The notes under the pieces are model-generated. The model saw nothing but the letters and a program-made list of their open reading frames with translations. It was not told the origin of the DNA and did not search any database. DNA of 64,000 bases, from the sequence record OR670491, one strand, 5' to 3'. Positions within the stretch are counted from its first letter, which is position 1. Every line of letters starts with the position of its first letter. Position numbers and translations under genes: made by a program. The DNA comes from Escherichia phage vB_EcoM_JNE01. Shown here piece by piece: positions 19,471-48,087 of this stretch.

Positions 19471-19496
19471 ATTTTAAAAGTATTTGTAGAAAGTAC

Positions 19497-19556: not shown

Positions 19557-19579
19557 ACACTTTAAGAGAGATTAATACG

Positions 19580-21189: not shown

Positions 21190-21345
21190 AAGTACTTGCA
21201 AACTATGTTTAAAGGCGTATAATGTTTTACATCAGGACGGGGAACGAAATAAGTAACTTCCCGTTAAGTAGCCCAGGAGTAAGGCACACGAAAAACTCCC
21301 CTGATAAAATAGTTTGACAAATGTTTTTAAAAGCGTATAATACTT
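21190..21345 (+). promoter_or_regulatory. tandem early promoters separated by a conserved about 90-nt leader (caggacggggaacgaaataagtaac...aaaaactcccctgataaaatagtttgacaa)
   Basis: two TTGxxx-N16-17-TATAAT promoters; the leader between them recurs at about 31632-31760 and partially at about 23925-24010. Confidence 0.5.
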
Positions 21346-23850: not shown

Positions 23851-24035
23851 ATTGTAGTACTGAATACTTTAAAAATAGTTTTGAAATAGTAGTTGACATT
23901 ACCAGGGAAAGGCGTAGAATGTATTACATCAGGACGGGGAACACTAAGTAGACCGCCAGTAAGTCGAACGAAAAACTGGACACGACCTGGAAACTTTGAT
24001 AAACTAACTTACACTTTAATTGAGGAATTAAAAAA

Positions 24036-24943: not shown

Positions 24944-24951
24944 AAAATAGT

Positions 24952-24980
24952 TTGACAATAGTTTTAAGTACTGGCATAAT
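24952..24980 (+). promoter_or_regulatory. early promoter (TTGACA-N17-CATAAT with upstream TG)
   Basis: ttgacaatagttttaagtactggcataat. Confidence 0.6.
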
Positions 24981-25012
24981 ACATACATCAACTACTGAAT
25001 AGGAATTAAAAA

Positions 25013-25240
25013 ATGGCTATTATCATTACTCGCGTATCTGGTACTACTGGCAACGAACAAGTAGTTGCAGTCATTACCAACAAGGAAGGTGCGGAATTGC
25101 AAAATGCAATGAATACCTGGGCCGTTAATGAGTTCGGTCAGTGGGCAAGTGTAGCATACATTGAAACCTATCAAGTGCCGTCGATTAGTTTAACTGATTT
25201 GGGCGTTGAGCGTATCCTTTGCCTGGATGAATTAAATTAA
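25013..25240 (+). CDS. hypothetical early protein
   Basis: ORF from track; AGGAA RBS. Confidence 0.55.
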   Translation: MAIIITRVSGTTGNEQVVAVITNKEGAELQNAMNTWAVNEFGQWASVAYIETYQVPSISLTDLGVERILCLDELN

Positions 25241-25325
25241 AAAAGTACTTGCAAAGTAAATCGAATAAAGTATAATACATTACATCAAGGGGAGAAATGG
25301 TTCTCCCCACTACAAGGAAACTAAA

Positions 25326-25469
25326 ATGAAAACTTGTCAATGTGGTCATAAATCTATTACGGGTTTTAAGCGGGGCGTTGCTCTTTGCCAGTACCATTAT
25401 AATTTACAAGTATGGGGTAAAGAATGGGCCGACCAGGTGGAAGCAGCAAAGAAAGCAAAAAGTAAGTAA
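25326..25469 (+). CDS. small cysteine-containing hypothetical protein (47 aa)
   Basis: hand-translated ORF after promoter + ggggagaaatggttctcccc hairpin; CQCGH...CQYH pattern suggests possible metal binding. Confidence 0.4.
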   Translation: MKTCQCGHKSITGFKRGVALCQYHYNLQVWGKEWADQVEAAKKAKSK

Positions 25470-27450: not shown

Positions 27451-27560
27451 AAAAAGTGGTTGACTCCGGTCAGCCATTTTGCTATTATATATTCATTGAG
27501 AGATAGCTCACTAGCCCACAGGGTGCATAAGTGTATCTATTATATGAGTATTGAGTACTG
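27451..27560 (+). promoter_or_regulatory. repeat module: hairpin with embedded TTGACT -35, TATTAT -10, CCCACAGGGTGC box
   Basis: one of four full copies (also about 31468-31575, 34741-34850, 37487-37625). Confidence 0.5.
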
Positions 27561-30406: not shown

Positions 30407-30433
30407 TATTAATTTAATAGAGGATAACAATAA

Positions 30434-30757
30434 ATGTACATTCATACTACTATCACAAAGGAAGTCCGTTGCCAGTTCGAAAGTATTCCGGGCGTATGTT
30501 TCATCACTGGTACGTTTTCCCCTGGTGATCGTGATAATCCAGTACTGTTACAATTACGCCATCCATCATGGGATAAAGCATTTGATCTACCGTTGAATGA
30601 ATTCGCAACTACTGCTGAAAAGTACATTAAAAATATTCGCGAGAATGATCGACTATTCATTAATGCTTTTAGTGATGCCGCGTTAAGTGAGATCCATGCT
30701 GTATTGGTTGCAATCATGGAATCAATGGAGAAAACTATATTCAAACAAGGTGAATAA
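30434..30757 (+). CDS. hypothetical early protein
   Basis: ORF from track with GAGGA RBS. Confidence 0.55.
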   Translation: MYIHTTITKEVRCQFESIPGVCFITGTFSPGDRDNPVLLQLRHPSWDKAFDLPLNEFATTAEKYIKNIRENDRLFINAFSDAALSEIHAVLVAIMESMEKTIFKQGE

Positions 30758-30840: not shown

Positions 30841-31053
30841 ATGCAAGGTCAACTAATCGTTCGTAAATGGTCTGATACTAACGAAAAACCGTGGGATGTA
30901 CAATACATCGCCCCAAATGGTGAATCCAGATATCAACCAGGTGTAACGCATAGTACTGAGCAATTCGCCGCCGCTCATCGCGAACGTCTGTTACAATCAA
31001 TGCAGCAAGGTTCCGGTGAAAAATTCATTCAGGATCATTGGCTGAAAGATTAA
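30841..31053 (+). CDS. hypothetical early protein
   Basis: ORF from track. Confidence 0.55.
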   Translation: MQGQLIVRKWSDTNEKPWDVQYIAPNGESRYQPGVTHSTEQFAAAHRERLLQSMQQGSGEKFIQDHWLKD

Positions 31054-31139
31054 AAAGTACTTGCACAGTACTGAATAAAGTGTATAATGTTTTATATCGG
31101 AAGGGGAATAGTTCCCCTCCGAACAAAGAGGAAAGTATA

Positions 31140-31313
31140 ATGGTCCAGGTAGAATTAACAGTACTGAAAGATCTGTTTTATCGGATTGGTACTACTGGCG
31201 AATATCCGAAGGGTGATAATGCAAAACTTTACGTATCACTCGACTTATGGCAACGCGAACAATTAGCAACGGCCTGGCGTAAAGGCAAAGCAGATAGCGA
31301 GGTGAAAGCATGA
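31140..31313 (+). CDS. small hypothetical protein
   Basis: track ORF 31038..31313 begins with TTG inside promoter; ATG MVQVELT after AGAGGAAAG RBS at 31140. Confidence 0.5.
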   Translation: MVQVELTVLKDLFYRIGTTGEYPKGDNAKLYVSLDLWQREQLATAWRKGKADSEVKA

Positions 31314-31459
31314 AAGAATTCTTATTTGAAGTAGTGTTTCAAGGTGTCGGTAATAACCAACTGATTCGATCAAGTGGTTATAATGTTAACCAGGCATGGA
31401 ATAACATTAAACAAATGTACCCGAACGCTATCACATATCGCAACCCGAAAGAAGTTTAA
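31310..31459 (+). CDS. small hypothetical protein (49 aa)
   Basis: hand-translated ORF, ATGA-coupled to upstream gene. Confidence 0.35.
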   Translation: MKEFLFEVVFQGVGNNQLIRSSGYNVNQAWNNIKQMYPNAITYRNPKEV

Positions 31460-31467
31460 AAATAATT

Positions 31468-31575
31468 GAAAAAGGGATTGACTCCGGTCAGTCCCTTTGT
31501 TATTATATACGCATAGAAACAAATTAGCCCACCGGGTGCATAAATGTATCTATTGTTTGCTGGTGGCTAGTACTG
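31468..31575 (+). promoter_or_regulatory. repeat module: hairpin gggattgactccggtcagtccc with embedded -35, TATTAT -10, CCCACCGGGTGC box, Chi octamer
   Basis: copy of the 27451-27560 module; GCTGGTGG at about 31559. Confidence 0.5.
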
Positions 31576-31631
31576 AAAACTATTTTTAAAAAGTACTTGC
31601 ATTGTACTTAGAATCAAGTATAATGTTTTAC

Positions 31632-31760
31632 ATCAGGACGGGGAACGAAATAAGTAACCCCGTTAAGTAGTCCAGGAGTAAGACATACGAAAAACTCCCC
31701 TGATAAAATAGTTTGACAATAGAAAGTAAACGAGTATAATACTTACATCAACCACTGATA
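31632..31760 (+). promoter_or_regulatory. conserved about 90-nt leader between tandem promoters (copy of 21228-21345)
   Basis: caggacggggaacgaaataagtaaccccgttaagtagtccaggagtaagacatacgaaaaactcccctgataaaatagtttgacaa. Confidence 0.5.
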
Positions 31761-31773
31761 AGGAAACATAAAA

Positions 31774-32049
31774 ATGCGGATTCTACTGACAGCTAACGAA
31801 ATCGAACAAGTACTGACTACTAATCTGGAACAATGGAAACGTGAAGCAGATATCCAGGCGGTTCAATGCCTTAACGATAAGTTAACGCCAGATGACTTAA
31901 GCACGATTGTTGATCCACAATTTTATGAAGATATTCACGACACGTCTTTAAGCGTCGAGGATGTACTTGATAAGCACTACATTGATACTGATTTACATGT
32001 TTACGGTCGTAAAAACTTTATCACTATTCACGACATTTACAATACTTAA
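31774..32049 (+). CDS. hypothetical early protein
   Basis: ORF from track. Confidence 0.55.
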   Translation: MRILLTANEIEQVLTTNLEQWKREADIQAVQCLNDKLTPDDLSTIVDPQFYEDIHDTSLSVEDVLDKHYIDTDLHVYGRKNFITIHDIYNT

Positions 32050-32052
32050 GTA

Positions 32053-32110
32053 TTGACAAAGTATCTTAGTACTGTATAATAGTTTACATCAAGGGGGGGA
32101 ATGGTTCCCC
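32053..32110 (+). promoter_or_regulatory. early promoter (TTGACA-N16-TATAAT) + 5' stem-loop; module duplicated at 32322-32380
   Basis: ttgacaaagtatcttagtactgtataatagtttacatcaaggggg...ggttcccctcc; duplicate differs only in G-run length. Confidence 0.6.
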
Positions 32111-32135
32111 TCCTAACTAAAAGAGAGAAATAAAA

Positions 32136-32318
32136 ATGGCTAAGTGCACTATCTGTAATAAAGAAATAGTATTAGTTCCAAGTGCCCGTGAACGTGCCGC
32201 TCGGTTCGGTGGCAAAGCGTCAGACTATACAAAAATGTTTACTACCCATACAGCTTGCCAGGTAGCAAAACGTTCACAAGAAAGCGTAGAATTAATGCGT
32301 AAACTTTCCAAAAAATAA
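32136..32318 (+). CDS. small cysteine-containing hypothetical protein
   Basis: ORF from track; CTICNK...HTACQ pattern. Confidence 0.5.
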   Translation: MAKCTICNKEIVLVPSARERAARFGGKASDYTKMFTTHTACQVAKRSQESVELMRKLSKK

Positions 32319-32321
32319 GTA

Positions 32322-32380
32322 TTGACAAAGTATCTTAGTACTGTATAATAGTTTACATCAAGGGGGGGGGAATGGTTCCC
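32322..32380 (+). promoter_or_regulatory. early promoter + 5' stem-loop (duplicate of 32053-32110)
   Basis: read directly. Confidence 0.6.
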
Positions 32381-32406
32381 CTCCTAACAAAGAGAGAGAA
32401 ATAAAA

Positions 32407-32730
32407 ATGGCTATGATCCTTACCCAGAAAGTAGAACTGAAAATTGTAACCTCCTTTGACATTAAAGTTAATCGGTGGACTGATAGCCACGGCAATACTT
32501 ACCACTCCTGCTACGTGTCCGCATTGATTGGTGATCGCTGGGAAGACCTGGGACACGAAACCTTTACATACGGTTACGGCACACAAGGCGAGTACACGGG
32601 TTTAGAAATCATTAAGGAAACTGTAATAGGTTTCAACCCGAAAGAGAAAGTACTACACAGAATTGAGAAAGAGATCAACAAAGAAATTACAGTTCGCTAC
32701 TACGATGTAAAACGTAAGAAAGACATGTAA
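32407..32730 (+). CDS. hypothetical early protein (paralogue of 25558..25881)
   Basis: conserved block shared with 25558..25881. Confidence 0.6.
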   Translation: MAMILTQKVELKIVTSFDIKVNRWTDSHGNTYHSCYVSALIGDRWEDLGHETFTYGYGTQGEYTGLEIIKETVIGFNPKEKVLHRIEKEINKEITVRYYDVKRKKDM

Positions 32731-32829
32731 TAGAATCCATTTAAAGTACTATTTGACATTGCCCAGATAGTACTTTATAATAGACTCTAACTTGTAGTAC
32801 TAATTAACTTAACTAATAGGATGTACACC

Positions 32830-33225
32830 ATGATTACTAAATTCTTCGCTACCCGTGAACAAGCTCGCATCGTTGCCCGTGAGGAAGGTGAAACATTTAA
32901 AGACATGGGTAAAGATTCTCCTACTGGTAAACGCTGGGCGGTACAGTTCAAAGAGATCTCTGATATTGTGAATTCACCTGAGCCTGTACTTACAGCAGCA
33001 GAACTAAAGCAAGCTCAAGAACTGGCTGAAGTACTGAACGCTCAAGATGACTTCTTGAAAGGTTCTGATATTGAAGTTACAGTTAACGCAAATGCATGGA
33101 CTCACGCGGATCACCTGGCAAACCTTAAGCGTCCAAGTGAACTGATTCGTAACCAGAAAGAGATCCGTCATGACCGTAAAGGAAACCGTGTTACCGTATA
33201 CAGTAAACGCCGCCAGGTTATCTAA
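32830..33225 (+). CDS. hypothetical early protein (paralogue of 20361..20627)
   Basis: conserved FATREQAR / GKRWA / RKGNRVTVY blocks; start may instead be 32821. Confidence 0.5.
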   Translation: MITKFFATREQARIVAREEGETFKDMGKDSPTGKRWAVQFKEISDIVNSPEPVLTAAELKQAQELAEVLNAQDDFLKGSDIEVTVNANAWTHADHLANLKRPSELIRNQKEIRHDRKGNRVTVYSKRRQVI

Positions 33226-33289
33226 TACCTTGCAGTACTAACCAACACGGCGGGAAGACAGTTCCCGCCTTTTTTATAGGACAAACAAA

Positions 33290-33544
33290 ATGATTAAGGT
33301 TCAACTATATAAAGATAACATCTTACGGGTACACTATAAAGCACCTCAGAGAATCATCACAAAGGCCGTACAGCTTGCTAATGAGTTTATTAATGGTAAC
33401 CTATTACCTAGGAAGTTAAGCAACGGGAAACTGCGTGTAATCGACGTGGACACTAACAACAGGATAGTAATCGAGAACACAGGAAAGATAAACCTTTATG
33501 AGCATCAACAATACAATAAGAAAATAAAACTAATATCACGTTGA
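33290..33544 (+). CDS. hypothetical early protein
   Basis: ORF from track. Confidence 0.5.
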   Translation: MIKVQLYKDNILRVHYKAPQRIITKAVQLANEFINGNLLPRKLSNGKLRVIDVDTNNRIVIENTGKINLYEHQQYNKKIKLISR

Positions 33545-33597
33545 CAGTACTCAATTGTTTTAGTACTATGTACACATACCAACACGGGAGAAACAAA

Positions 33598-33816
33598 ATG
33601 AAATTATCTAAAATCGAAAAGAAAACTATTGATGAAGCAGTTAAGCACGGTTATACCTTTCGTAATGATTCACATTTTACCAATTTTCAACAAGGGTATC
33701 GTACTATTAAAAAACTAATTGACAAAGGTTTATTAGTTGAAGTCAATAACGGTAACGGTATCGAGTATCAACCAACACAGGACGCATTTTATTTTAAGAA
33801 ATATAATATTATCTAA
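33598..33816 (+). CDS. hypothetical early protein
   Basis: start MKLSKIEKK after promoter ttgacagtactcaattgttttagtactat; track ORF 33541..33816 begins inside the promoter. Confidence 0.5.
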   Translation: MKLSKIEKKTIDEAVKHGYTFRNDSHFTNFQQGYRTIKKLIDKGLLVEVNNGNGIEYQPTQDAFYFKKYNII

Positions 33817-33874
33817 TTGACAGTACTCAAATGTTTTAGTACTATATGTACATACCAACACGGGGGGAAACAAA

Positions 33875-34117
33875 ATGATTACTTTAGAAAAACGTATCAA
33901 AGAAACTACATCGCTGGTGGAACTGTTAACAGTACTCAAATGTAAAACAGCACCATTCAGCACGCCGGACTTTATTAATATGGTTGATGTTAATGGTCGC
34001 TATCGTATCACGGTCGAACAAGGAGCGGCGAAAGTATTCAGTACTAAAAACACGAAGGAAGTGATCCACGCCGTTAATGTTAAAAAAGTAGTTGCCATTG
34101 ATAGTAAAGTACTGTAA
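33875..34117 (+). CDS. hypothetical early protein
   Basis: preceded by a near-identical copy of the 33541-33597 promoter/leader. Confidence 0.55.
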   Translation: MITLEKRIKETTSLVELLTVLKCKTAPFSTPDFINMVDVNGRYRITVEQGAAKVFSTKNTKEVIHAVNVKKVVAIDSKVL

Positions 34118-34148
34118 TATAGTTTCATTAACTCAAGGAGATCATGCA

Positions 34149-34733
34149 ATGCGTAATTATACAAAATTCATCCGTACACTGTCAGAAATGGAAACCAACA
34201 AAGAGATCCTTTCAGCTTGTCGGTTAGCTGACCTGGAGATCATCGGTGCTGGTTCTTCCCGTATAGTTTTCGCTTTAAATGATCGGTTAGTGATTAAGGT
34301 CGCGAATTGTGATGCGGGTGTAGAACAAAATGAAACTGAATGTAAGGTATGGAATTTTTTAGACTATGACCGCCCTCAGTTGAAACAGTACTTTGCAAAG
34401 GTGCATATGCATTTATGCGATCCTGATAATATGTTTATCGTTATGGATCGGTTGAGTACTGCAAGCAAAGGCAGTGTGAAGCACGTAAACGCGTGCAATG
34501 AATTAAAGTACAATATTAAACGTAATGCAATCGAACGCCAGCACCGCTTTGCTGATGCACTACAACACGTTGATGATACATTATCAACACTAACGATAAG
34601 AGATATCAGAAAACAGAATATCGGCCAGGATCGTAATGGACTTATTAAAGTACTTGATTACGGTTTAACCAGCAATATCTGGAATCAGTACTATAAAAAG
34701 CGTGATGTGGCAGCAAGTAAGGTAACACGATAA
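34149..34733 (+). CDS. putative minimal protein kinase-like protein
   Basis: ordered kinase-like motifs: glycine loop IGAGSSRIVF, lysine in VIKVA, catalytic-loop-like IRDIRKQNIG, DFG-like VLDYG; start MRNYTKF after AAGGAG RBS. Confidence 0.5.
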   Translation: MRNYTKFIRTLSEMETNKEILSACRLADLEIIGAGSSRIVFALNDRLVIKVANCDAGVEQNETECKVWNFLDYDRPQLKQYFAKVHMHLCDPDNMFIVMDRLSTASKGSVKHVNACNELKYNIKRNAIERQHRFADALQHVDDTLSTLTIRDIRKQNIGQDRNGLIKVLDYGLTSNIWNQYYKKRDVAASKVTR

Positions 34734-34740
34734 AAAAGAT

Positions 34741-34850
34741 TAAAAAAAGGGATTGACTCCGGTCAGTCCCTTTGCTATTATATATCCATTGAGAGATAAC
34801 TCACTGACCCATAGGGTGCGGAAGTGTATCTATTATATAAGTATTCAGTA
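34741..34850 (+). promoter_or_regulatory. repeat module: hairpin with embedded -35, TATTAT -10, CCCATAGGGTGC box (copy of 27451-27560)
   Basis: gggattgactccggtcagtccctttgctattatat...gacccatagggtgcggaagtgtatc. Confidence 0.5.
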
Positions 34851-34955
34851 CTGAAAACTATTTTTAAAAAAGTACTTGCATTGTACTTAGAATCAAGTAT
34901 AATGTTTTATATCGAGAGGGGGAAATGGTTCTCCCTGGCAATAAGGAATAAAATC

Positions 34956-35177
34956 ATGACTACAATGACTTGCATTTACGCTTCCAATCGTCTGAATGAT
35001 GCGGCCTTTAATGTTGATTCAGAATATCAATGTTATCGGGATGAAAATAAAAAAGTTTTTGTAGTTGATAATAATGGTTTCCATATTGAATTACAATCCG
35101 GCTTCACTGGTGTTGATGGTAAATCAGTATGGGGCGTACAGGATGATAAAGGCACATATCATTTTAAACGTAATTAA
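34956..35177 (+). CDS. hypothetical early protein
   Basis: start MTTMTCIY after promoter + gggggaaatggttctccc hairpin; track ORF begins upstream at 34824. Confidence 0.5.
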   Translation: MTTMTCIYASNRLNDAAFNVDSEYQCYRDENKKVFVVDNNGFHIELQSGFTGVDGKSVWGVQDDKGTYHFKRN

Positions 35178-35180
35178 GTA

Positions 35181-35240
35181 TTGACAAAGTATATCAGTAC
35201 TGTATAATAGTTTACATCAAGGGGAGAATAGTTCTCCCCG
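35181..35240 (+). promoter_or_regulatory. early promoter + 5' stem-loop; module duplicated at 35672-35740
   Basis: ttgacaaagtatatcagtactgtataatagtttacatcaaggggagaatagttctcccc present twice. Confidence 0.6.
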
Positions 35241-35260
35241 ATACTAAAAGGAATAAAATC

Positions 35261-35665
35261 ATGACTACTACTAATCTTGCTCGGAATATCGCCAACGATA
35301 AAAATCATGCTGCAATGGTTGTTGGTTACATTGAAGCTATGCAATTCAGTACTGTACACAATGAGAACGGCGATTACCTGGAAGATTATGAATTATCAGA
35401 GCAAGCCCATCAAGCGGCAGTGATTGCATGTTCTCGCTTCATTGAGAAACACGGTAATGATCTGGAAGTAGTTCGCGGTATGTTTATTGATTACGGTTAT
35501 GAGCAAGCTGGTCATGATCTGTTCCTTACCCGCGAAGGTCACGGAACTGGTTTTTGGGATCGTGGTTTAGGTCACTATGGCGATGTATTCACGAAGTACT
35601 GCGAAGAAATCAACGTTTGCGATCCCTATGTAGGCGATGATAATCTAATCTATATGGGCGAATAA
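35261..35665 (+). CDS. hypothetical early protein
   Basis: ORF from track. Confidence 0.55.
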   Translation: MTTTNLARNIANDKNHAAMVVGYIEAMQFSTVHNENGDYLEDYELSEQAHQAAVIACSRFIEKHGNDLEVVRGMFIDYGYEQAGHDLFLTREGHGTGFWDRGLGHYGDVFTKYCEEINVCDPYVGDDNLIYMGE

Positions 35666-35671
35666 AAGTAT

Positions 35672-35740
35672 TTGACAAAGTATATCAGTACTGTATAATA
35701 GTTTACATCAAGGGGAGAATAGTTCTCCCCGATACTAAAA
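35672..35740 (+). promoter_or_regulatory. early promoter + 5' stem-loop (duplicate of 35181-35240)
   Basis: read directly. Confidence 0.6.
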
Positions 35741-35752
35741 GGAAACAAAATT

Positions 35753-36025
35753 ATGTCCAGCTACTCCGCTACTATGATCATTAAAGATATGAACGGTAAT
35801 CCTACTTCTGCTGGTGGATCATTTGGAAACATTAATTTAGATGGTCGGTTATCCATGCAATCAGCAATCGATGCAGCGAAAGAAGTTTTTAAGAATGAAT
35901 GTACTGTTAGTAAGCTGGATTATATGGGATTTGCTATCGAAAAAACTAATCGTTTTGTGGACTACAAAAAACCACTGATGATTGATACTAACCTGAAAGC
36001 AAACGAAGTGGAGTACTTATTATGA
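35753..36025 (+). CDS. hypothetical early protein
   Basis: ORF from track. Confidence 0.55.
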   Translation: MSSYSATMIIKDMNGNPTSAGGSFGNINLDGRLSMQSAIDAAKEVFKNECTVSKLDYMGFAIEKTNRFVDYKKPLMIDTNLKANEVEYLL

Positions 36026-36213
36026 CAGTTGAAGAAGTTAAAAAAGTACTGGCAGTACTACGCTATCATAATCATTGTAAGGTGAAGAATGATCCTGATT
36101 ATCTTGATTCATCCCTGGAAGAGGATACACTACAAGCAATAAGCCATATGCAAACATTAGCAAAGCGTATGACCGAAAAGAATAGACCGGACTATATCGG
36201 AAATAAAATTTAA
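36022..36213 (+). CDS. small hypothetical protein
   Basis: ATGA-coupled to upstream gene. Confidence 0.5.
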   Translation: MTVEEVKKVLAVLRYHNHCKVKNDPDYLDSSLEEDTLQAISHMQTLAKRMTEKNRPDYIGNKI

Positions 36214-36299
36214 AAAGTACTTGCATTGTAGTTAGATTAACGTATAATGTTTTACATAGAGCGGGGGAATAGTTCTCCCGCCAGTCCAGGAGATACACC

Positions 36300-36563
36300 A
36301 TGAACACTATCGAAATCACTATCAATGCACACGTATACGACAACGTAATCATGCAAACTACTATGACCGCTAATGATACCAGTACTTTGCGGAATACTGT
36401 TATTAGTGCTGTATGTGCCGCTATCGGTGATGTCGCCCTGGAAAATGCAAAACACGTAAACGATGGTTTCACTATGTGCAAACGTGATAACGCAAAACAT
36501 ATCATCGTGGAAGGTTACGGCGGTGTAGAATTTAATGTTTATATGAAAAAAGTACTTGCATAA
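36300..36563 (+). CDS. hypothetical early protein
   Basis: ORF after promoter + gcgggggaatagttctcccgcc hairpin. Confidence 0.55.
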   Translation: MNTIEITINAHVYDNVIMQTTMTANDTSTLRNTVISAVCAAIGDVALENAKHVNDGFTMCKRDNAKHIIVEGYGGVEFNVYMKKVLA

Positions 36564-36630
36564 TAACTAAAACAAAGTATAATGTTTTGCATAGGGGGAG
36601 ATATCCTCCCCCACTAAAAGGAGTAATAAA

Positions 36631-36855
36631 ATGGCTAACTTTGATGAACTGATGCGGGAAGTAGCTAACCTGGCAGAAGAGAAGAAATCATTCGATTCTA
36701 TCTATAACACCGCTCACCGTGATTCAGTACTGGCATGTAACCAGGATCAAAAAGATGAACTAATCGCCACCTATCATGAAGCATGGAAGTACTACCGACA
36801 ATGGGAGAAAGAAGAAAGTGAGTCTACCATTGACGGCCTCAATAATCTAATCTAA
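36631..36855 (+). CDS. hypothetical early protein
   Basis: ORF after promoter + gggggagatatcctccccc hairpin. Confidence 0.55.
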   Translation: MANFDELMREVANLAEEKKSFDSIYNTAHRDSVLACNQDQKDELIATYHEAWKYYRQWEKEESESTIDGLNNLI

Positions 36856-36931
36856 AAGTTTTATTTCAGTACTATTGACATAGCTTGATAGTACTGATGT
36901 AATAACTTTACTAACTACAAGGGGAAACATA

Positions 36932-37189
36932 ATGGATCAGTTCACACAATATCGGGTAAATCATCAAGCTATGGCCTACGTAGAAGACCATAAAACGTTA
37001 CCAGTACTGCAACCAGTTAAAGGCCATATCTATCGTGCAATGTCGTGGTGTACGGCCCAGGATGGCTATAAAACCGTAGCCGTTGGTATGTATTGCGGTA
37101 ATGGTGAATGGTTTGATCCAAATAATCCGGTAGCCATTGACAGTACTGAAAAAATGAAATGGGCCGACTACATCGAAGATATTTCATAA
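36932..37189 (+). CDS. hypothetical early protein
   Basis: ORF from track after ttgacatagcttgatagtactg promoter. Confidence 0.5.
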   Translation: MDQFTQYRVNHQAMAYVEDHKTLPVLQPVKGHIYRAMSWCTAQDGYKTVAVGMYCGNGEWFDPNNPVAIDSTEKMKWADYIEDIS

Positions 37190-37486: not shown

Positions 37487-37625
37487 AGAATAAAAAAAGG
37501 GATTGACTCCGGTCAGTCCCTTTGCTATTATATACGCATAGACAAAAACTAGCCCACAGGGTGCATAGGTGTATCCAAAATATATAGTTAATAACGGTGA
37601 GTAACTATCTGCTGGTGGAACTAAA
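37487..37625 (+). promoter_or_regulatory. repeat module: hairpin with embedded -35, TATTAT -10, CCCACAGGGTGC box, Chi octamer
   Basis: copy of 27451-27560 module; GCTGGTGG at about 37611. Confidence 0.5.
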
Positions 37626-38827: not shown

Positions 38828-39002
38828 TGCGTAAAAGGATTTAGTACTGATGCATTTTAAATTTTAGTCATTTTTTAAAAACTACGCAAAAAAACTAAAC
38901 CAATACCTTAGCGTAATAGTTTAGGGATTGGACTATGTTTTTATGCGTGGGGGGGCTAGTATGGGGTAACCTTAGCTCGATCGTGAAGTAGCCCATAGGG
39001 TA

Positions 39003-39030
39003 TTGACTTTTTATATGGAACGTGTAAAAT
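39003..39030 (+). promoter_or_regulatory. promoter (TTGACT-N16-TAAAAT) for the LGTNYQE array
   Basis: ttgactttttatatggaacgtgtaaaat followed by AAGGAG RBS and GTG start. Confidence 0.5.
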
Positions 39031-39060
39031 CTGAATGATATAAATTATCAAGGAGTCCCC

Positions 39061-39291
39061 GTGAAAAACTTAAGTAAAGATGAATACGATGAGTTACTTA
39101 TACGAACTGTTAATAAAGCCTTTGGAGCCGCTACACCGTTGATACGTTTGGATTACTTCCTTTCGGCTACTCTAGGAACTAACTATCAGGATTTTTGGAT
39201 AGATAAGTATATTGCACAACTAAAAGAAGATATAACTTACAAGGTAGTCAATTACACTATACAAAACGCTATTACTAAAGGTAACAAATGA
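39061..39291 (+). CDS. small protein, LGTNYQE-motif family (member 1)
   Basis: GTG start after AAGGAG; motif LSATLGTNYQDFWIDKYI. Confidence 0.6.
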   Translation: MKNLSKDEYDELLIRTVNKAFGAATPLIRLDYFLSATLGTNYQDFWIDKYIAQLKEDITYKVVNYTIQNAITKGNK

Positions 39292-39515
39292 AAGTCATAA
39301 CACAAACACAAGCGTATTCACTTATGCTGCTTTACATGGATGACTTAACCAGTATCTCCCGTGACCTCAATCCTTTGATTAGGGGTCATCTGCAATGTGA
39401 GATTCGCATGTTGGCTGTACTGGGGACCAACTTTCAACTGGAGTACGTTGAAGAATATCTTTACGCACTGAAGAGGTATATTGCACATGAAGCACATCTC
39501 GCCGGACGAACATGA
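39288..39515 (+). CDS. small protein, LGTNYQE-motif family
   Basis: ATGA coupling; motif AVLGTNFQLEYVEEYL. Confidence 0.6.
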   Translation: MKVITQTQAYSLMLLYMDDLTSISRDLNPLIRGHLQCEIRMLAVLGTNFQLEYVEEYLYALKRYIAHEAHLAGRT

Positions 39516-39705
39516 AGAAATCATTAGAAAACTCACACAGCAAGCATTAAATCTGTATAACGATCCATCTAAAACATGGTATGAAAATAGAATCGCAGTG
39601 AGTGACTTATGGGTTCTGCACTTTATCGGGACACAGTATCAAGAAAGGTATCTGGATCACTTGATTGGACATTTACTGCAAGGAATTATAATTAAATGCG
39701 AATGA
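39487..39705 (+). CDS. small protein, LGTNYQE-motif family
   Basis: motif HFIGTQYQERYLDHLI; start MKHISPDEHEE (ATG) chosen over upstream TTG. Confidence 0.55.
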   Translation: MKHISPDEHEEIIRKLTQQALNLYNDPSKTWYENRIAVSDLWVLHFIGTQYQERYLDHLIGHLLQGIIIKCE

Positions 39706-39944
39706 AAATCCTAAGCGAAGTAGAATTTTCTGAAAGAATGAAACTAGGAAGAAACGCCAGATTAAAAGTCTACGATGAAGTGGAGTTAACTAACACACAA
39801 AGAGCCGTAAAGCGTATGGAAATAACATTACCTTACTTCCTTGGGACGAACTATCAGGAAACGATGATAATGAACTATATAAATGAACTTAAAATTCATA
39901 TCCATGAAACATATCAAGGTGTACTGAATGAAAAAACTAAGTAA
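39702..39944 (+). CDS. small protein, LGTNYQE-motif family
   Basis: motif YFLGTNYQETMIMNYI; ATGA coupling. Confidence 0.55.
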   Translation: MKILSEVEFSERMKLGRNARLKVYDEVELTNTQRAVKRMEITLPYFLGTNYQETMIMNYINELKIHIHETYQGVLNEKTK

Positions 39945-40170
39945 TTACGATTACTTCAAACTATTGGACGGCATCAAAGGTGACATACGTTTAATTCATC
40001 AAACTGAATACATTCCAAGGGACGATAGGATTATTATTGTATCAGAAATGAAACTCAAACTCCTTGTGGGAACCGATAGACAGAATATCGCGGTGGACTT
40101 ACTTATATCATCCTTACGCAATAAGATATGGAACCAATATAATGAAGACAATCGACATAAAGGAATTTAA
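39928..40170 (+). CDS. small protein, LGTNYQE-motif family
   Basis: motif LLVGTDRQNIAVDLLI. Confidence 0.55.
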   Translation: MKKLSNYDYFKLLDGIKGDIRLIHQTEYIPRDDRIIIVSEMKLKLLVGTDRQNIAVDLLISSLRNKIWNQYNEDNRHKGI

Positions 40171-40369
40171 CATTAGACTGGCTCGAACTCGTGCACTAAG
40201 ACAACAGATTTTCTACGATACAAACACACCACAAACCAAAAAGGATGTTGCAATATCAGAGATTAACATGTATAGTACCTTGGGAACGCAATACCAAGAG
40301 ATGTACGTCCAAGAGCATGTACTGAACTTAAAAAAGGAAATCCAACATGAAATACATCGATGCCGCTGA
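40142..40369 (+). CDS. small protein, LGTNYQE-motif family
   Basis: motif STLGTQYQEMYVQEHV; family-type start MKTIDIKEF at internal ATG of track ORF 40064..40369. Confidence 0.55.
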   Translation: MKTIDIKEFNIRLARTRALRQQIFYDTNTPQTKKDVAISEINMYSTLGTQYQEMYVQEHVLNLKKEIQHEIHRCR

Positions 40370-40586
40370 AAAACAACGTAGATTAATGGAATCGCTTAAA
40401 GCATGTAAAAAGATTTTCAATGACTATACGATTACACATGAAGAACGAATGGTGCTAATCGCTGAAACCCGCGTTCTGGTTATGCTGGGAACATCTGAAC
40501 AGGAAGGTGCAGTTGAAATCTTACTTAAGGAAATGCAATTCCACTTAAAACGAAGAGGCAAAGATGAAACACTTGACAAGCGATGA
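40347..40586 (+). CDS. small protein, LGTNYQE-motif family
   Basis: motif VMLGTSEQEGAVEILL. Confidence 0.55.
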   Translation: MKYIDAAEKQRRLMESLKACKKIFNDYTITHEERMVLIAETRVLVMLGTSEQEGAVEILLKEMQFHLKRRGKDETLDKR

Positions 40587-40851
40587 ATTGAATGCTAAAT
40601 TAAACCATGCGTTCACAGTAAGAACCAGAATTATGATGAACAAGAATTACAGCATAAACGAAAAACGTATCCTCTGTGTAGAAGCTACGATGGGTGTACT
40701 GTTGGGAACCACTAAGCAAGAGCATCACGTTAATCTTGTTATCTCGGAGTTACTCCAGGAAATCAAAGGTAAAATCTATATTCAAAATATGAGTAAAGCT
40801 ATCCACAGAAAGGATATTGACTCTATCGTATCTTTAAACAGAGAAATTTAA
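40564..40851 (+). CDS. small protein, LGTNYQE-motif family
   Basis: motif VLLGTTKQEHHVNLVI. Confidence 0.55.
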   Translation: MKHLTSDELNAKLNHAFTVRTRIMMNKNYSINEKRILCVEATMGVLLGTTKQEHHVNLVISELLQEIKGKIYIQNMSKAIHRKDIDSIVSLNREI

Positions 40852-41105
40852 TGCAAAATGAAATGATATACTTAACGAACGATGAACTAAAAGTAAGGCT
40901 CGTTAAATCCAGAAGAGATACCAATAACATCCCAAAAGACCCTATGCAATCACCCGCAGAAAGGAGTGCTGAAGTATTATATGCACAACTCTTGTACTTT
41001 CTAGGAACTGATAGACAAGAACATTACGTTCAATCCTGGCTTAGATACACTAAAATTACTATTCAAGAAAAGCTACATGAACAAGAATTTCCTAAGTCGG
41101 AGTAA
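40851..41105 (+). CDS. small protein, LGTNYQE-motif family
   Basis: motif YFLGTDRQEHYVQSWL. Confidence 0.55.
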   Translation: MQNEMIYLTNDELKVRLVKSRRDTNNIPKDPMQSPAERSAEVLYAQLLYFLGTDRQEHYVQSWLRYTKITIQEKLHEQEFPKSE

Positions 41106-41109
41106 TAGA

Positions 41110-41334
41110 ATGCAAAAACCTAAACCACTAGGAACAGCAGAATACATTGAACTAATGGCAGTGAACTTCTCTGCATTTAAGAAACTGCTACAAGAATCAA
41201 AGAATGATTTAGAGTATAAGATTAAGGGTTCTGATTTAAGATTGTTACTTACTCTAGGAACAGACATTCAGGATAAATCTGTTCAAGAGCATATCAGAGC
41301 ACTTACACATAGCATCTGTCATAAACATTCCTAA
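41110..41334 (+). CDS. small protein, LGTNYQE-motif family
   Basis: motif LTLGTDIQDKSVQEHI; ATG with GGAG RBS; track ORF starts upstream at 41077. Confidence 0.55.
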   Translation: MQKPKPLGTAEYIELMAVNFSAFKKLLQESKNDLEYKIKGSDLRLLLTLGTDIQDKSVQEHIRALTHSICHKHS

Positions 41335-41348
41335 ATCGGAGAAATACA

Positions 41349-41576
41349 ATGCAAGCCCAAATCAAAACTCTAACATCTAAAATGTATCACGATGGTTTAA
41401 TGAAGAGATCACCACAGCTACTGGAAATTTCCTCAAGCGATAAAAGTGATGAAGAGATTGAAATGCTCATGCAGGAAGTCAGACTAGATATCACGATAGG
41501 CACTGATGCACAATCAGAATACATTGGTTATTATATTGATTGTACTAAAGATTACATCAAGAGCCTATGCCAATGA
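41349..41576 (+). CDS. small protein, LGTNYQE-motif family
   Basis: motif ITIGTDAQSEYIGYYI. Confidence 0.55.
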   Translation: MQAQIKTLTSKMYHDGLMKRSPQLLEISSSDKSDEEIEMLMQEVRLDITIGTDAQSEYIGYYIDCTKDYIKSLCQ

Positions 41577-41624
41577 CATATTAGTACTGAATACTTAGTA
41601 CTAAATTTTAATTAGGAAAATAAA

Positions 41625-44238: not shown

Positions 44239-44434
44239 AAACATAGATCCCAATCAGTACGCAACAATGTACAGAGATTATTGGATGCAAAGTTCCAGTA
44301 CCAAGTCCCTTGCGGAATTTCGTATGATATATTTTCTTGGTACAGAGAATCAAGAAGAAACGATGCTGGACTATATTGAAGTACTAAAGGTTGAAGTACA
44401 AGATGAATACATATTAGGGGTTATGGAGCAGTGA
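44231..44434 (+). CDS. small protein, LGTNYQE-motif family
   Basis: motif YFLGTENQEETMLDYI; internal ATG of track ORF 44204..44434. Confidence 0.5.
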   Translation: MFRNIDPNQYATMYRDYWMQSSSTKSLAEFRMIYFLGTENQEETMLDYIEVLKVEVQDEYILGVMEQ

Positions 44435-44925
44435 AATCGAGATTCGTTTCAGAGTTCAGTACAGACACGGTGTACGCTAAGGATTTAGTACAGTTATTAA
44501 TTTCATTGCTCAAGGCTAAGGATAATTCAGAAGTTCAAGATTTGTGTAGTTCTTGTATCCGATATGCAGGTGGTAATTTGTATATTAATATAGATGGATT
44601 AGATCGTCCTATATATAAACAATCAAAATTCATCCAAAGTTGGACATACATTGATTTTGATAGTACATATTCGGCGTACACAAAAAGAAGTACAAAAACC
44701 TTTTTTACAATCCAGGGTAAAACGTATAATTTATTAAAAGAGCCATTAACAGAAGAAATGTATTTCCAGATGCAATGCTTAGGATTAAGTACAGAAGCGT
44801 TAAATGCTTATGTGCTTATTGATGCTATGGATTATTTAGATTTAGATAAGTACGTTCCAGACGGATGGAGAATGTCTTTACCTTCGTTATTTGCAGTGTA
44901 CAATACAATACATGGGGAACCTTAA
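44431..44925 (+). CDS. FQxS-motif family protein
   Basis: GTG start after GGAG; motif TEEMYFQMQCLGLSTEALNAYVLIDAM. Confidence 0.55.
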   Translation: MKSRFVSEFSTDTVYAKDLVQLLISLLKAKDNSEVQDLCSSCIRYAGGNLYINIDGLDRPIYKQSKFIQSWTYIDFDSTYSAYTKRSTKTFFTIQGKTYNLLKEPLTEEMYFQMQCLGLSTEALNAYVLIDAMDYLDLDKYVPDGWRMSLPSLFAVYNTIHGEP

Positions 44926-45436
44926 AGTGAATTTTAATGTAATTGATGTTCCTGAATTAGCAAAGAAGATTCAAACAATCCTGTACATAGGTAGTTCAAT
45001 ACGAAGTACAGGTGATTTCATCAGGACAGATAAAGTAAGAATGCAAGGTATGCGTTCATCATATGATGTTAAAGGTATGTGTACATTTGATATGGTCTAT
45101 ACAAAATACGGAAAGGAAAAGAATGCAGTATGTTTATTATCGTTTCCACCGAACCCTATAGCACCGAGAAATCCTAACAATACATTATGGTACGAGCAAG
45201 GTGCAGATACAGTAGAGTTCAAGGGTGTATTTTATGATGTAGAAGATATTCCAGCAACAGAAGAAGGAGCATTCCAGTACAGCTTATTATATCCAGATGA
45301 TGTAATATTTTATAAGAAGTTATTTTGGGAGTTAAACAATTTACCTCATTACACCCCTAATTTTTCAATAGATCTGGAGTGCATTGATACCGTATACGAA
45401 AGTTTAATGGAGTTCATTAGTTATGAAGTACAGTAA
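44912..45436 (+). CDS. FQxS-motif family protein
   Basis: motif TEEGAFQYSLLYPDD; internal ATG of track ORF 44891..45436. Confidence 0.5.
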   Translation: MGNLKVNFNVIDVPELAKKIQTILYIGSSIRSTGDFIRTDKVRMQGMRSSYDVKGMCTFDMVYTKYGKEKNAVCLLSFPPNPIAPRNPNNTLWYEQGADTVEFKGVFYDVEDIPATEEGAFQYSLLYPDDVIFYKKLFWELNNLPHYTPNFSIDLECIDTVYESLMEFISYEVQ

Positions 45437-46004
45437 CCCAGAAGAGACAGTATTTGAGTACACATATGAAAATGCTGTAGAGCTTTGTACAAAATTAAAA
45501 GAAGTCCTTCAAATTTACAATTCCATTGTAAATGACCCAAAGAATAAAGATAAAAATGTAATCCAATTAAATGCATTTTGTTCCATAAACATAGCAAAAG
45601 ACCATTCAGAATTACAGGTCCGTAAAACACAAGATAACGAGGACAAATTCAGATTCATCAGGAATTATCCAATATCAGATGTATTATCATATCTTAGTTT
45701 TCCACCTGGTCCTTGTTTGAGTAAAGAAGATACGGATTCATTTTGGTATAATAGTACATTCCAGTACATGGGTATTAATAACAAGGGTTCAGATGCAACG
45801 GACAGGATTGAAGTGAATCAAAGTCCTAAAAGTGCAGAGGAATTCTTTCAGTACAGTACCCTTATGCATCCAAGAACAATTTTTTATTCATGCGTTTTAG
45901 ATGCTTTGAAGAGTTCAGGTTTAGATTTACCGCATTTACGTTTCAACCCACAGAGCATTCCTAGTGTGTGGGAAATGTTAAAGAACGAGCCGCCTGTGTC
46001 GTAA
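45423..46004 (+). CDS. FQxS-motif family protein
   Basis: motif SAEEFFQYSTLMHPR; followed by hairpin + T7 terminator. Confidence 0.55.
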   Translation: MKYSNPEETVFEYTYENAVELCTKLKEVLQIYNSIVNDPKNKDKNVIQLNAFCSINIAKDHSELQVRKTQDNEDKFRFIRNYPISDVLSYLSFPPGPCLSKEDTDSFWYNSTFQYMGINNKGSDATDRIEVNQSPKSAEEFFQYSTLMHPRTIFYSCVLDALKSSGLDLPHLRFNPQSIPSVWEMLKNEPPVS

Positions 46005-46023
46005 GATACGGGCTTTTTTTGTA

Positions 46024-46052
46024 TTGACAAAAGCAAAAGTACCAAGTACAAT
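46024..46052 (+). promoter_or_regulatory. internal array promoter (TTGACA-N17-TACAAT)
   Basis: ttgacaaaagcaaaagtaccaagtacaat after T-run terminator. Confidence 0.55.
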
Positions 46053-46080
46053 ACAGATATATTAATAAAAGGAACATACC

Positions 46081-46647
46081 ATGCAACCAGTACAACCAGT
46101 ACAACCAGTACCTAAAGTGCCTAAAGTGCATCTAGTAGCCGATTTCGAAGTACCACAAACGTTCGAAGAGTGCAATGCGTACATCGACAAGGTGCTTTGT
46201 ATTTTCAAGGCATTCATTGAAGATGACATTCCATCCTTTGATTACGAACATCCCAGCCAAGGGTACGCAAACATGTACACAAGGAATAACATGAGTGGTA
46301 TTATTCCTCACATCACGAGTACAACGTTTTGGTACACAGATAGTTCAAAGAAATCAAAAGATTTCCTTGTACGCGATTTGAATTTAAACGAACCTTCATC
46401 AGTACCTATGCTGTTTGAGCCTATTCAATCCAAAGAAGAGTATTTTCAGTACAGCACCTTGTATACAGCATTTGAGTTATTTTGTATTCAGATGTACGCA
46501 AGAACAAATGCTTATATTAAAGATAATCCAATCAATTTCAAAAGTGCCAAGATTGTCCATCCTGTATTTGCTGATTTATATGATTCAGTGTATTCAGGTA
46601 AAAAGCCAAAGTACACCACAACAGCGTATAGAGCGTTTCGTCCTTAA
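46081..46647 (+). CDS. FQxS-motif family protein
   Basis: motif SKEEYFQYSTLYTAFE; N-terminal tandem repeat MQPVQPVQPVPKVPKV. Confidence 0.55.
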   Translation: MQPVQPVQPVPKVPKVHLVADFEVPQTFEECNAYIDKVLCIFKAFIEDDIPSFDYEHPSQGYANMYTRNNMSGIIPHITSTTFWYTDSSKKSKDFLVRDLNLNEPSSVPMLFEPIQSKEEYFQYSTLYTAFELFCIQMYARTNAYIKDNPINFKSAKIVHPVFADLYDSVYSGKKPKYTTTAYRAFRP

Positions 46648-46656
46648 GGAGCTATA

Positions 46657-47268
46657 ATGAGTTACATGAGTTCGCACAGATTATTAGATGTGTTAAAGGA
46701 GCATCTTGTTTTCCTTCAGGACAAGTTACGTTCCTTTTCAGAGACATTCCCGGAGGGTAGTAAGTTGGTAGTTCCTTTTCGTGCACCCAATGTGAATGAC
46801 CAGTTCATAGTACACATCAGTACAGATAATATTTCGTTGCGTATTATCAATTCAGATTTAGATTTATTCGGTGTAAGATTCAATACAAAACAAACGGTAT
46901 CGAGTTCGTCCCTGAACAAATGGGATTTTTGTATTGCTCACCCTAATAAAGCTGAAGAGATTTGGATACAAATCAGTGCAGATGGTCATGAGAGATCGCA
47001 TTTTGCGTATTATCCTAAAACAGATAAGTTCCCAGAATCAGTGTATTACAAGAGAACAGATTATGAAACATTGGATTCATTTTTGTTCCAGCAGCAGATG
47101 TTTGAAGGCGTAAGAAATCAAGATGAAATCCAGAAGGACATTGATACAATCCTTGATATCCAAAGTTATCTTGATGAAGACATGTACGTATATCATGGTA
47201 ATTCAGTTATTTTTGAAAATGTATTACCGTCCTTTATCAATGCATTACAAGATATTAAGGTGTTTTAA
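46657..47268 (+). CDS. hypothetical protein (weak FQxS-like motif)
   Basis: 203-aa ORF with AAGGAG RBS; motif DSFLFQQQMFEG. Confidence 0.5.
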   Translation: MSYMSSHRLLDVLKEHLVFLQDKLRSFSETFPEGSKLVVPFRAPNVNDQFIVHISTDNISLRIINSDLDLFGVRFNTKQTVSSSSLNKWDFCIAHPNKAEEIWIQISADGHERSHFAYYPKTDKFPESVYYKRTDYETLDSFLFQQQMFEGVRNQDEIQKDIDTILDIQSYLDEDMYVYHGNSVIFENVLPSFINALQDIKVF

Positions 47269-47501
47269 TGATTTTATTCAATACAGGTCCGTGTTCCTTA
47301 GAAGTGATGTTTTCAAGAAATCGTTTATGGAATCAAAAATTCAGGGACGATACGTTGTTTCACAGGATGGTACAAACCTTCGAAAACGAGAAAGAAGAAG
47401 AATACATACACAGAATCATGTACATAGCAGTCCTCAGTACACCTGAATATTACGAGCGTTTGAGAGCGTTCAATTCCACAATACCAAAGGAGCCTAAGTG
47501 A
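47268..47501 (+). CDS. small hypothetical protein
   Basis: ORF coupled to flanking genes; overlaps alternative-frame ORF 47123..47446, judged less likely. Confidence 0.4.
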   Translation: MILFNTGPCSLEVMFSRNRLWNQKFRDDTLFHRMVQTFENEKEEEYIHRIMYIAVLSTPEYYERLRAFNSTIPKEPK

Positions 47502-47899: not shown

Positions 47900-48087
47900 G
47901 TGAAAATCAGACCAAAATAATTGACAGGATGGTATCCCTGCATATCAGTCAGTACCTTTATGATTCCAGAAGAGGTATTGATACATGGGACATTACAATG
48001 CAATGCATCAGGCTTTTTTATTCGGATTTTAATAATGGATTAAAATGGCTCCAAGAGAGAAAAGATGAGAAAGTACACCAGACATGA
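47884..48087 (+). CDS. small hypothetical protein
   Basis: ORF from track. Confidence 0.4.
   Translation: MGIMLSENQTKIIDRMVSLHISQYLYDSRRGIDTWDITMQCIRLFYSDFNNGLKWLQERKDEKVHQT

Follow-up and report, generated by a model that had tools for sequence, protein, structure and literature searches.

Modules and Genes at the Locus

This report concerns a stretch of 64,000 nucleotides of Escherichia phage vB_EcoM_JNE01 (sequence record OR670491), called the window below, and the predicted promoter/leader modules that precede its small genes. Three pairs of similar modules (L1/R1, L2/R2, and L3/R3, or pairs 1, 2, and 3) had been pointed out in a preliminary description. Each pair brackets a one-gene unit, here called a cassette, which is missing from some related phages. 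The features are listed below; SD stands for the Shine-Dalgarno sequence, and protein lengths are in amino acids (aa).

32046-32135, + strand: module L1, with -35 box TTGACA (32053-32058), -10 box TATAAT (32075-32080), hairpin (32092-32114), purine-rich SD, and ATG at 32136
32053-32321: cassette i unit (module plus gene), 269 bp, absent in 121Q and phAPEC6
32136-32318, + strand: gene of cassette i, 60 aa, PHROG 8738, a function-unknown family
32315-32406, + strand: module R1, with -35 box (32322-32327), -10 box (32344-32349), hairpin (32363-32385), and ATG at 32407
32407-32730, + strand: 107-aa gene, predicted to be under R1
33541-33597, + strand: module L3, of the hairpin-less class, with -35 box TTGACA (33541-33546), -10-like TACTAT (33564-33569), and ATG at 33598
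~33541-33817: cassette iii unit, 277 bp, absent in Salmonella phage SD-2_S15
33598-33816, + strand: gene of cassette iii, 72 aa, no family match
33817-33874, + strand: module R3, with -35 box (33817-33822) and -10-like box (33840-33845)
33875-34117, + strand: 80-aa gene, predicted to be under R3
35176-35260, + strand: module L2, with -35 box (35181-35186), -10 box (35203-35208), hairpin (35221-35239), and ATG at 35261
35181-35671: cassette ii unit, 491 bp, absent in 121Q, SD-2_S15, Turkey3, and phAPEC6
35261-35665, + strand: gene of cassette ii, 134 aa, PHROG 1915, a function-unknown family
35666-35752, + strand: module R2, with -35 box (35672-35677), -10 box (35694-35699), hairpin (35712-35730), and ATG at 35753
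35753-36025, + strand: 90-aa gene, predicted to be under R2

Repeat detection covered 31000-37000, and the sequence was read over 31800-36000. All three pairs were found where they had been reported. In local alignment, pair 1 (32036-32142 and 32305-32413) is identical in 101 of 109 columns (92.7%). The G-runs of its two members, G7 and G9, differ by a 2-nt indel, and the longest exact run is 46 nt. Pair 2 (35176-35272 and 35666-35765) is identical in 93 of 100 columns, with an exact run of 71 nt spanning the promoter, the hairpin, and part of the leader. Pair 3 (33517-33601 and 33795-33878) is identical in 73 of 86 columns (84.9%), including three gap columns, and its longest exact run is only 14 nt. 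The pairs are far beyond chance, and a chance origin of exact runs of 46-71 nt is impossible. The modules had been called perfectly duplicated. This is right only for the 71-nt run of pair 2 and not for pair 1 (93%) or pair 3 (85%); the alignments show that the repeats are genuine and that the extent of their identity had been overstated.

The family to which the three pairs belong has about 40 modules, and these pairs are the most alike within it. A consensus scan found about 40 near-consensus TTGACA-N16/17-TATAAT promoters between 18 and 38 kb. Thirteen of them, in a 20-kb region and all on the + strand, match at 12 of 12 positions, and about 25 more match at 10-11 of 12. When all 595 module pairs are ranked by similarity, the top two are the adjacent pairs 35181/35672 (0.96) and 32053/32322 (0.95), and no non-adjacent pair exceeds 0.887. 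A further repeat of about 195 nt, composed of a terminator and a promoter, is present at 31457-31645 and 34731-34924 with 81.6% identity. This repeat, the family of about 40 members, the lack of a hairpin in pair 3, and the location in the terminal repeat described below had all been overlooked.

Anatomy of the Modules

The strong promoter matches are all on the + strand, and each is preceded by an A-rich tract. The preceding gene has its stop codon 3-6 nt ahead of the -35 box. The -10 box is followed by a conserved (A/G)TTTACAT(C/G) stretch, then by the hairpin, a purine-rich SD, and the ATG. The genes often start with ATGGCT or ATGACT. The -10 box of pair 3, TACTAT, is weaker; L3 contains two AGTACT sites and shows no structure on folding (z +0.4).

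Most modules have a G-rich/C-rich hairpin with a stem of 6-10 bp, which begins 11-14 nt after the -10 box. From this spacing, about 4-8 unpaired nucleotides are predicted at the 5' end of the RNA before the hairpin. The stems share a GAA-loop-TTC core, and pairing is kept in GCGGGAA/TTCCCGC, GGTGGGGAA/TTCCCCACT, and AGGGGAAA/TTTCCCCT. In RNA folding, the minimum free energy (MFE) of the hairpins is -12 to -17 kcal/mol, with z of -1.7 to -4.1. The L1 hairpin has an MFE of -16.8 (z -2.3), and the L2 hairpin, GGGGAGAA-UAG-UUCUCCCC, an MFE of -13.2 (z -3.1). Among leaders picked on 5' features alone, 46 of 49 reach a folding energy of -8 kcal/mol or better.

No U-tract follows the leader hairpins; the next bases are GAUACUAAAAGG, CACUAAC, or UCCUAAC. 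They are absent from the calls of a terminator scan and do not have the form of rho-independent terminators. Rfam gave nothing relevant for the whole window at the gathering threshold or for the terminal repeat at E <= 1, where the rli48 match at E = 0.77 is a chance one. The hairpin might be a stabiliser of the mRNA 5' end or an insulator, a prediction held at slightly less than even confidence. Stabilising hairpins of the ompA type have only a few unpaired nucleotides between them and the 5' end of the transcript, and the predicted 4-8 nt would agree with this. An attenuator, a protein-binding site, and a DNA-level aid to recombination are possible alternative roles.

Location in the Terminal Repeat

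Identity of the region to the phages ph0011, WPEC3, and fEgEco12 is 95-97%, and to 121Q about 91%; all four are Asteriusvirus jumbo myophages of 350-385 kb. Based on this similarity, the stretch is assigned to a jumbo coliphage of the 121Q/PBECO4 type (Asteriusvirus). The direct terminal repeat (DTR) of vB_Ec-M-J is annotated at 1-21525, and its position 1 aligns to window position 17757. Homology to all relatives stops at window position 38850. For G17, a terminal redundancy of about 20 kb has been reported (PMC6563267). The alignment to the vB_Ec-M-J repeat and the redundancy of G17 indicate that the promoter array fills the terminal repeat.

17757-38980, + strand: DTR, about 21 kb, placed by the vB_Ec-M-J annotation and alignment

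A simple gene call finds about 52 small + strand open reading frames (ORFs) in the DTR, most of them with their own promoter/leader module. The ORFs encode 47-203 aa, and most have only PHROG matches of unknown function. The intergenic spacers are typically 83-92 bp, and intergenic DNA makes up about 40% of the DTR. Just past the DTR, the genes annotated in vB_Ec-M-J are packed tightly with little or no intergenic spacing. For three ORFs (22690, 27038, and 38115), the gene caller placed the start at an ATG in a hairpin loop (AAATGGTTCTCCC). These starts are probably wrong, but the breakpoint result given below is unaffected.

Terminators are spaced every 4-8 genes in the array. The canonical one at 33249-33269 closes the transcription unit that holds cassette i.

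31471-31506, + strand: composite terminator/promoter, hairpin AAAGGGATTGACTCCGGTCAGTCCCTTT with -35-like TTGACT and with -10-like TATTAT in its T-rich tail
27453-27488, 34746-34781, and 37496-37531, + strand: further copies of the composite terminator/promoter
33249-33269, + strand: canonical intrinsic terminator, GGCGGGAAGACAGTTCCCGCC followed by TTTTTT

A Pfam search with 10 cassette proteins returned only a ParE-like domain and one sub-threshold kinase match. The former is a ParE-like toxin domain (PF24732, E = 6e-11) in the 84-aa ORF at 33290-33544. The latter links the 194-aa ORF at 34149-34733 weakly to protein kinases (E = 0.003, which misses the Pfam cut-off); this ORF is annotated as a Ser/Thr kinase in relatives. 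Both ORFs are likely host-takeover genes.

Cassette Turnover among Relatives

The homologous regions of eight relatives were compared with the window by chained megablast alignments. In relatives without a cassette, one single module is covered by both flanking alignments, which overlap there by 85-103 bp. The same signature is seen at 23146/23419, 26820/26977, and 36283/36547. The reverse signature, in which the relative has an extra cassette, is seen at 25534/25459, 37697/37630, 20030/19970, and 27038/26980. The one-module overlap is found at at least 10 junctions. A gene can also be replaced at the joints by another of equal size (348 vs 342 bp at 21987/22336).

The breakpoints number 60, not all of them independent, as some are common to several relatives. 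Forty-nine of them are intergenic, against the intergenic share of about 40% of the DTR. Among the other 11, 10 lie within 9-49 nt of a gene end (nine of them within 31 nt), and one is truly internal.

The single module in the relatives is chimeric: its upstream context is that of the left copy, its downstream context that of the right. In SD-2_S15, which lacks cassette iii, the switch comes just after TTGACAGTACTCAA, past the -35 box. In 121Q, which lacks cassette i, it comes near the SD and the ATG. The crossover point is thus not fixed, as the inferred switch sites differ between events. These chimeric modules support the earlier proposal of recombination among promoters. Illegitimate recombination, one of the two kinds suggested, is unnecessary, as the joints share 45-103 bp of homology. 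It is not supported that regulatory modules were copied independently of coding sequence, since the mobile unit is the module together with its gene.

An assembly artefact or a collapsed repeat can be rejected, as the arrangement recurs in the independently sequenced ph0011, fEgEco12, G17, and vB_Ec-M-J.

Sharing with Other Phage Groups

A 91-nt module used as a query finds 77-85% matches in Justusliebigvirus/Phapecoctavirus (muut, inny, and SD2), in W70 of Vequintavirinae, and in Klebsiella RaK2-like phages. The early regions of these phages have the same small-gene layout, with promoter/hairpin spacers of 85-95 bp. Some cassettes are shared as well: unrelated phages of the rV5-like and phi92-like groups contain them, and the modules, at 80-92% DNA identity. 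One example runs from a structured leader element through a promoter and the 91-aa gene at 31774-32049 to the promoter half of L1; here, the homology to muut stops at the boundary between the transcription start site (TSS) and the hairpin of L1. Another segment, 24944-25465, matches W70 at 82.5%.

31618-32143, + strand: segment common to Justusliebigvirus muut, 91.9% DNA identity

The whole DTR matches 220 phage records, about 180 of which appear, judging by their length and names, to be myoviruses of 130-155 kb and not Asteriusvirus. For the DNA flanking the DTR (17.8 kb and 25 kb), the matching records number only 35-36; they all come from phages of Escherichia or Salmonella and, among the matches listed, are all of jumbo size. 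This difference in the number of records indicates that DNA sharing across families is specific to the cassette array.

Proposed Explanation and Alternatives

The DTR is probably an array of self-contained early-gene cassettes that are shuffled by homologous recombination at their promoter modules. Each cassette consists, in this order, of a predicted near-consensus promoter for host sigma-70 with an A-rich upstream tract, usually a hairpin, an SD, and one small ORF, and the hairpin would lie at the 5' end of the mRNA. The modules are all related, and genes with nothing else in common are thereby linked by 45-100 bp of homology. General homologous recombination at the modules, either in replicating concatemers or between co-infecting phages, would then delete, insert, or replace units of module plus gene, leaving the expression of the neighbours undisturbed. 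The three pairs described above would be the two joints of three single-gene cassettes, and their near-identity could reflect a recent event or local gene conversion. The varied crossover points fit general homologous recombination and not a site-specific or illegitimate process.

Several observations weigh against this explanation or narrow it. A permutation test over the full array gives no significant excess of similarity for adjacent over non-adjacent modules (p = 0.1); the likeness of neighbours is confined to the extreme pairs. There are indels without flanking module repeats, for example at 30407-30755. At 31054-31135, again without flanking module repeats, a module of the window is found where 121Q has a small promoter-less ORF. 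The hairpin is missing from pair 3, from several other modules, and from the 'CATCAACTACTGA' leader class, and is therefore dispensable for cassette turnover. The covariation of its stem is real but modest: in an arm-swap test, native arm pairs fold at -12.3 kcal/mol and swapped chimeras still fold at -10.2 kcal/mol. RNAalifold on a MAFFT alignment of 49 leaders, in which the stems are out of register, predicted only three pairs, and the pair counts anchored on the loop are partly circular for the inner 6 pairs, as the selection demanded at least 6 pairs. Promoter use, its timing, and the position of the hairpin in the RNA are predictions from consensus sequences. The preliminary description had suggested related genomes as a means to find the ancestral copy. 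The single-module state was found in some of them, but insertion and deletion cannot be told apart for any event with the present data.

One alternative is concerted evolution only. Strong selection for an optimal early promoter with its leader and gene conversion between neighbours would keep the modules alike, the cassette indels would be incidental deletions between whatever direct repeats are available, and the modules would have no role as linkers. The modules are near-consensus promoters under obvious functional constraint, and in a phage proficient in recombination, repeats of 45-100 bp will promote deletion whatever their nature. Besides, the identity of L2 and R2 reaches further 3' in the window than in G17, which resembles local conversion. 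However, the exact identity includes spacer and leader positions that are free of any consensus requirement, and relatives also show extra cassettes and equal-size replacements at the same joints. Cassettes and modules are moreover common to unrelated phage families, with homology ending inside modules. This alternative is considered improbable, although it overlaps heavily with the shuffling of cassettes and differs from it mainly in whether there is selection for a linker role.

A site-specific system similar to integrons, in which the hairpin would be an attC-like site for a dedicated phage recombinase and cassettes would be circular, is very unlikely. It would account for hairpins conserved in form and position and for the muut boundary, which is exactly at the hairpin. 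Cassette mini-circles have been detected in RB49, for which a protein binding GGGG...CCCC has been speculated (PMC2839356). Yet the crossovers vary among a site after the -35 box (cassette iii), a site near the SD and ATG (cassette i, 121Q), and the TSS/hairpin boundary (muut), and cassette iii turns over with no hairpin in its modules. No recombinase was identified adjoining the array (the whole genome was not screened).

Tandem duplication of promoter-plus-gene units whose coding parts diverged beyond recognition is scarcely credible: modules of 93-100% identity stand beside ORFs of unequal length (60 vs 107, 134 vs 90, and 72 vs 80 aa) and different PHROG families with no detectable similarity, a contrast in divergence that is implausible within 500 bp; the 134-aa protein belongs to a wide family of its own, found in unrelated phages; close relatives lack the intervening genes; and the few true paralogues that could speak for it, three pairs in an all-vs-all BLASTP of 52 called proteins (20035/22076, 66%; 20361/32830, 39%; 25558/32407, 39%), do not include any pair across a duplicated module, in agreement with the earlier statement that the downstream genes are not paralogues.

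Under the favoured explanation, by cassette shuffling, the same linker modules and some cassettes circulate at the DNA level among three unrelated coliphage groups. This offers a concrete route for the spread of small early genes, which likely have host-takeover or anti-defence functions. It can be speculated, as an unlikely extension, that the modules are a maintained currency of exchange between families, with compatible linkers in Asteriusvirus, rV5-like Vequintavirinae, and phi92-like Stephanstirmvirinae, possibly involving a dedicated factor. If so, self-expressing host-takeover or counter-defence genes would move as plug-and-play cassettes during co-infection, and the factor could be a protein recognising either the hairpin or AGTACT, an over-represented and conserved palindrome found in most modules. 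For annotation, the modules explain the gene-by-gene differences between the terminal repeats of close relatives. For phage engineering, they would be natural insertion sites, where a gene could be added or removed without disturbing its neighbours.

Other Features of the Window

The palindrome AGTACT occurs 307 times in the whole window, compared with about 21.5 expected from base composition (14-fold), and CAGTACTG occurs 61 times compared with about 0.7 (87-fold). The AGTACT sites occur in coding as well as non-coding DNA and in each of the three reading frames. Many are in promoter spacers and at the edges of -35 boxes, for example at 32068, 35196, 33546, and 33562. In the alignment with 121Q, 115 of 136 sites are intact, while control hexamers are conserved at 60-62%. 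AGTACT is nearly missing at 38850-41580 and 44400-49300 (0-1 per 2 kb). The latter stretch, with a run of 107-203-aa ORFs, is still rich in GTAC (29-31 per 2 kb). These stretches may have evolved differently or been acquired recently. No literature on the over-representation of AGTACT was found. The palindrome could be a site that a phage protein binds or modifies.

A conserved box, CCCAYMGGGTGC, is found on the + strand near 21030, 27515, 29194, 31528, 34808, 37553, and 38992 and on the - strand near 23019, 21098, and 18869. Nine of the 10 copies are about 25-35 nt downstream of a strong promoter-like site, and most have no ORF behind them. At four + strand copies, a terminator hairpin (GGGATTGACTCCGGTCAGTCCCTTTGCTATTAT) contains the promoter-like site. 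The copies at 21030 and 21098 are convergent. The box, which has no Rfam match, may mark a short non-coding transcript or serve as a regulatory (nut-like) site.

The structured leader element in the segment shared with muut is about 85 nt long, ACAUCAGGACGGGG...CCCCGUUAAGUAGYCCAGGAGUAAGRCAYACGAAAAACUCCCCUGAU, lies between two tandem promoters, and folds at about -20 kcal/mol. It is seen at 31605-31712 and 21218-21313, with a related copy at 23915-24030, and also at 2073-2175 of L008 and 2404-2508 of L009. It is conserved in Asteriusvirus, Justusliebigvirus (muut), and Vequintavirinae (W70), is not in Rfam, and is a candidate structured RNA.

The leftmost 1.8 kb of the DTR (17757-19580) is nearly gene-free. 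It holds an array of the 8-mer ACGGCTAA (18576-18676), divergent promoter-like sites, and a 66-bp unit repeated 2.5 times at 19301-19465 that contains AGTACTGAATAAT 13-mers. Copy number here varies among relatives (junctions 19290-19446). This part might serve as an origin, for packaging, or in regulation.

The 25 kb right of the DTR, 39001-64000, aligns with phage Turkey5 from end to end at 96.6% identity, and other Asteriusviruses match only 1-3% of it. The closest relatives of the DTR itself are ph0011 and fEgEco12. This shows that the genome is a mosaic and that its flank to the right of the DTR is hypervariable among members of the genus. On the - strand, 3274-13414 matches DNA annotated in relatives as tandem paralogous RCC1-like 'DNA condensation' genes. 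The counterparts in 121Q are genes 244-248, and the multiplicity within a record is high (4-10 places). A scan for tRNA and tmRNA genes found none.

Comparison with Known Systems

Integron cassettes have no promoter of their own and are recombined at a fixed site by a tyrosine recombinase (attC hairpin and IntI). The DTR is similar to them in being an array of single-gene cassettes that are gained and lost, with structured repeats in between. It differs in that each cassette has its own predicted promoter, that crossover points vary instead of being fixed, and that modules without a hairpin recombine too.

The morons of lambdoid phages (Hendrix and Juhala) are reportedly autonomous one-gene units with their own promoter, placed between neighbouring genes and variably present. 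They usually have their own terminator and were inserted singly by illegitimate events, without a common flanking linker. The cassettes of the DTR are likewise one-gene units with their own predicted promoter, variably present among relatives. Unlike morons, dozens of them share homologous promoter modules, and terminators come only every 4-8 genes.

The long terminal repeat of T5 is its pre-early/early region, with strong host-type promoters and many small host-takeover genes. By analogy with T5, the terminal repeat probably enters the cell first. The presumed early region of the RaK2-like phage CBB contains a cluster of RpoD-like promoters that have UP-like elements, and three such promoters are on the 22-kb terminal repeat (PMC5259590). 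The window resembles both phages in having predicted strong host-type promoters over many small genes in a long DTR. Repeated promoter/leader modules as recombination joints and cassette polymorphism are not reported for CBB and are not known to be reported for T5.

The closest parallel is the promoter-early stem-loop (PeSL) cassettes of the T4-type phages RB49/phi1, T4/PST, and KVP40/nt-1 (Arbiol et al. 2010, PMC2839356; Comeau et al. 2014, PMC4122927). PeSLs are understood as strong early promoters and stem-loops that act as linkers for the modular shuffling of ORFans (PMC2839356, PMC4122927), and promoter activity and recombination were verified experimentally for those of RB49/phi1 (PMC2839356). 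The modules of the window have the same organization: a sigma-70-like early promoter, here predicted, with an AT-rich upstream tract and a GGGG...CCCC stem-loop, placed between the stop codon of one small ORFan and the SD and ATG of the next. As with PeSLs, they are clustered in a hyperplastic region, they border indels and replacements between close relatives, and crossovers occur at variable points within the motif. The stem-loop is present in pairs 1 and 2 and in most modules but not in pair 3 or the 'CATCAACTACTGA' class.

There are also differences. The usual hairpin of the window is in the predicted 5' untranslated region, has no U-tract, and is not an obvious terminator; the layout typical of PeSLs, with a terminator over the promoter, is seen only in the composites at 27453, 31471, 34746, and 37496. 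The array fills a 21-kb DTR, whereas PeSL phages have internal hyperplastic regions, and its cassettes are common at the DNA level to two other phage subfamilies. In the searchable library, no description of these modules was found for Asteriusvirus/121Q/PBECO4/G17 or RaK2-like phages. The host of the array is a RaK2-like jumbo phage of Asteriusvirus and not a T4-type phage, which is a difference in taxonomic scope and not in mechanism. The mechanism itself is already described for T4-like phages; the array of vB_EcoM_JNE01 is PeSL-type modular shuffling in a new phage group, extending it to the jumbo phages of the RaK2/121Q type and locating it in their terminal repeat.

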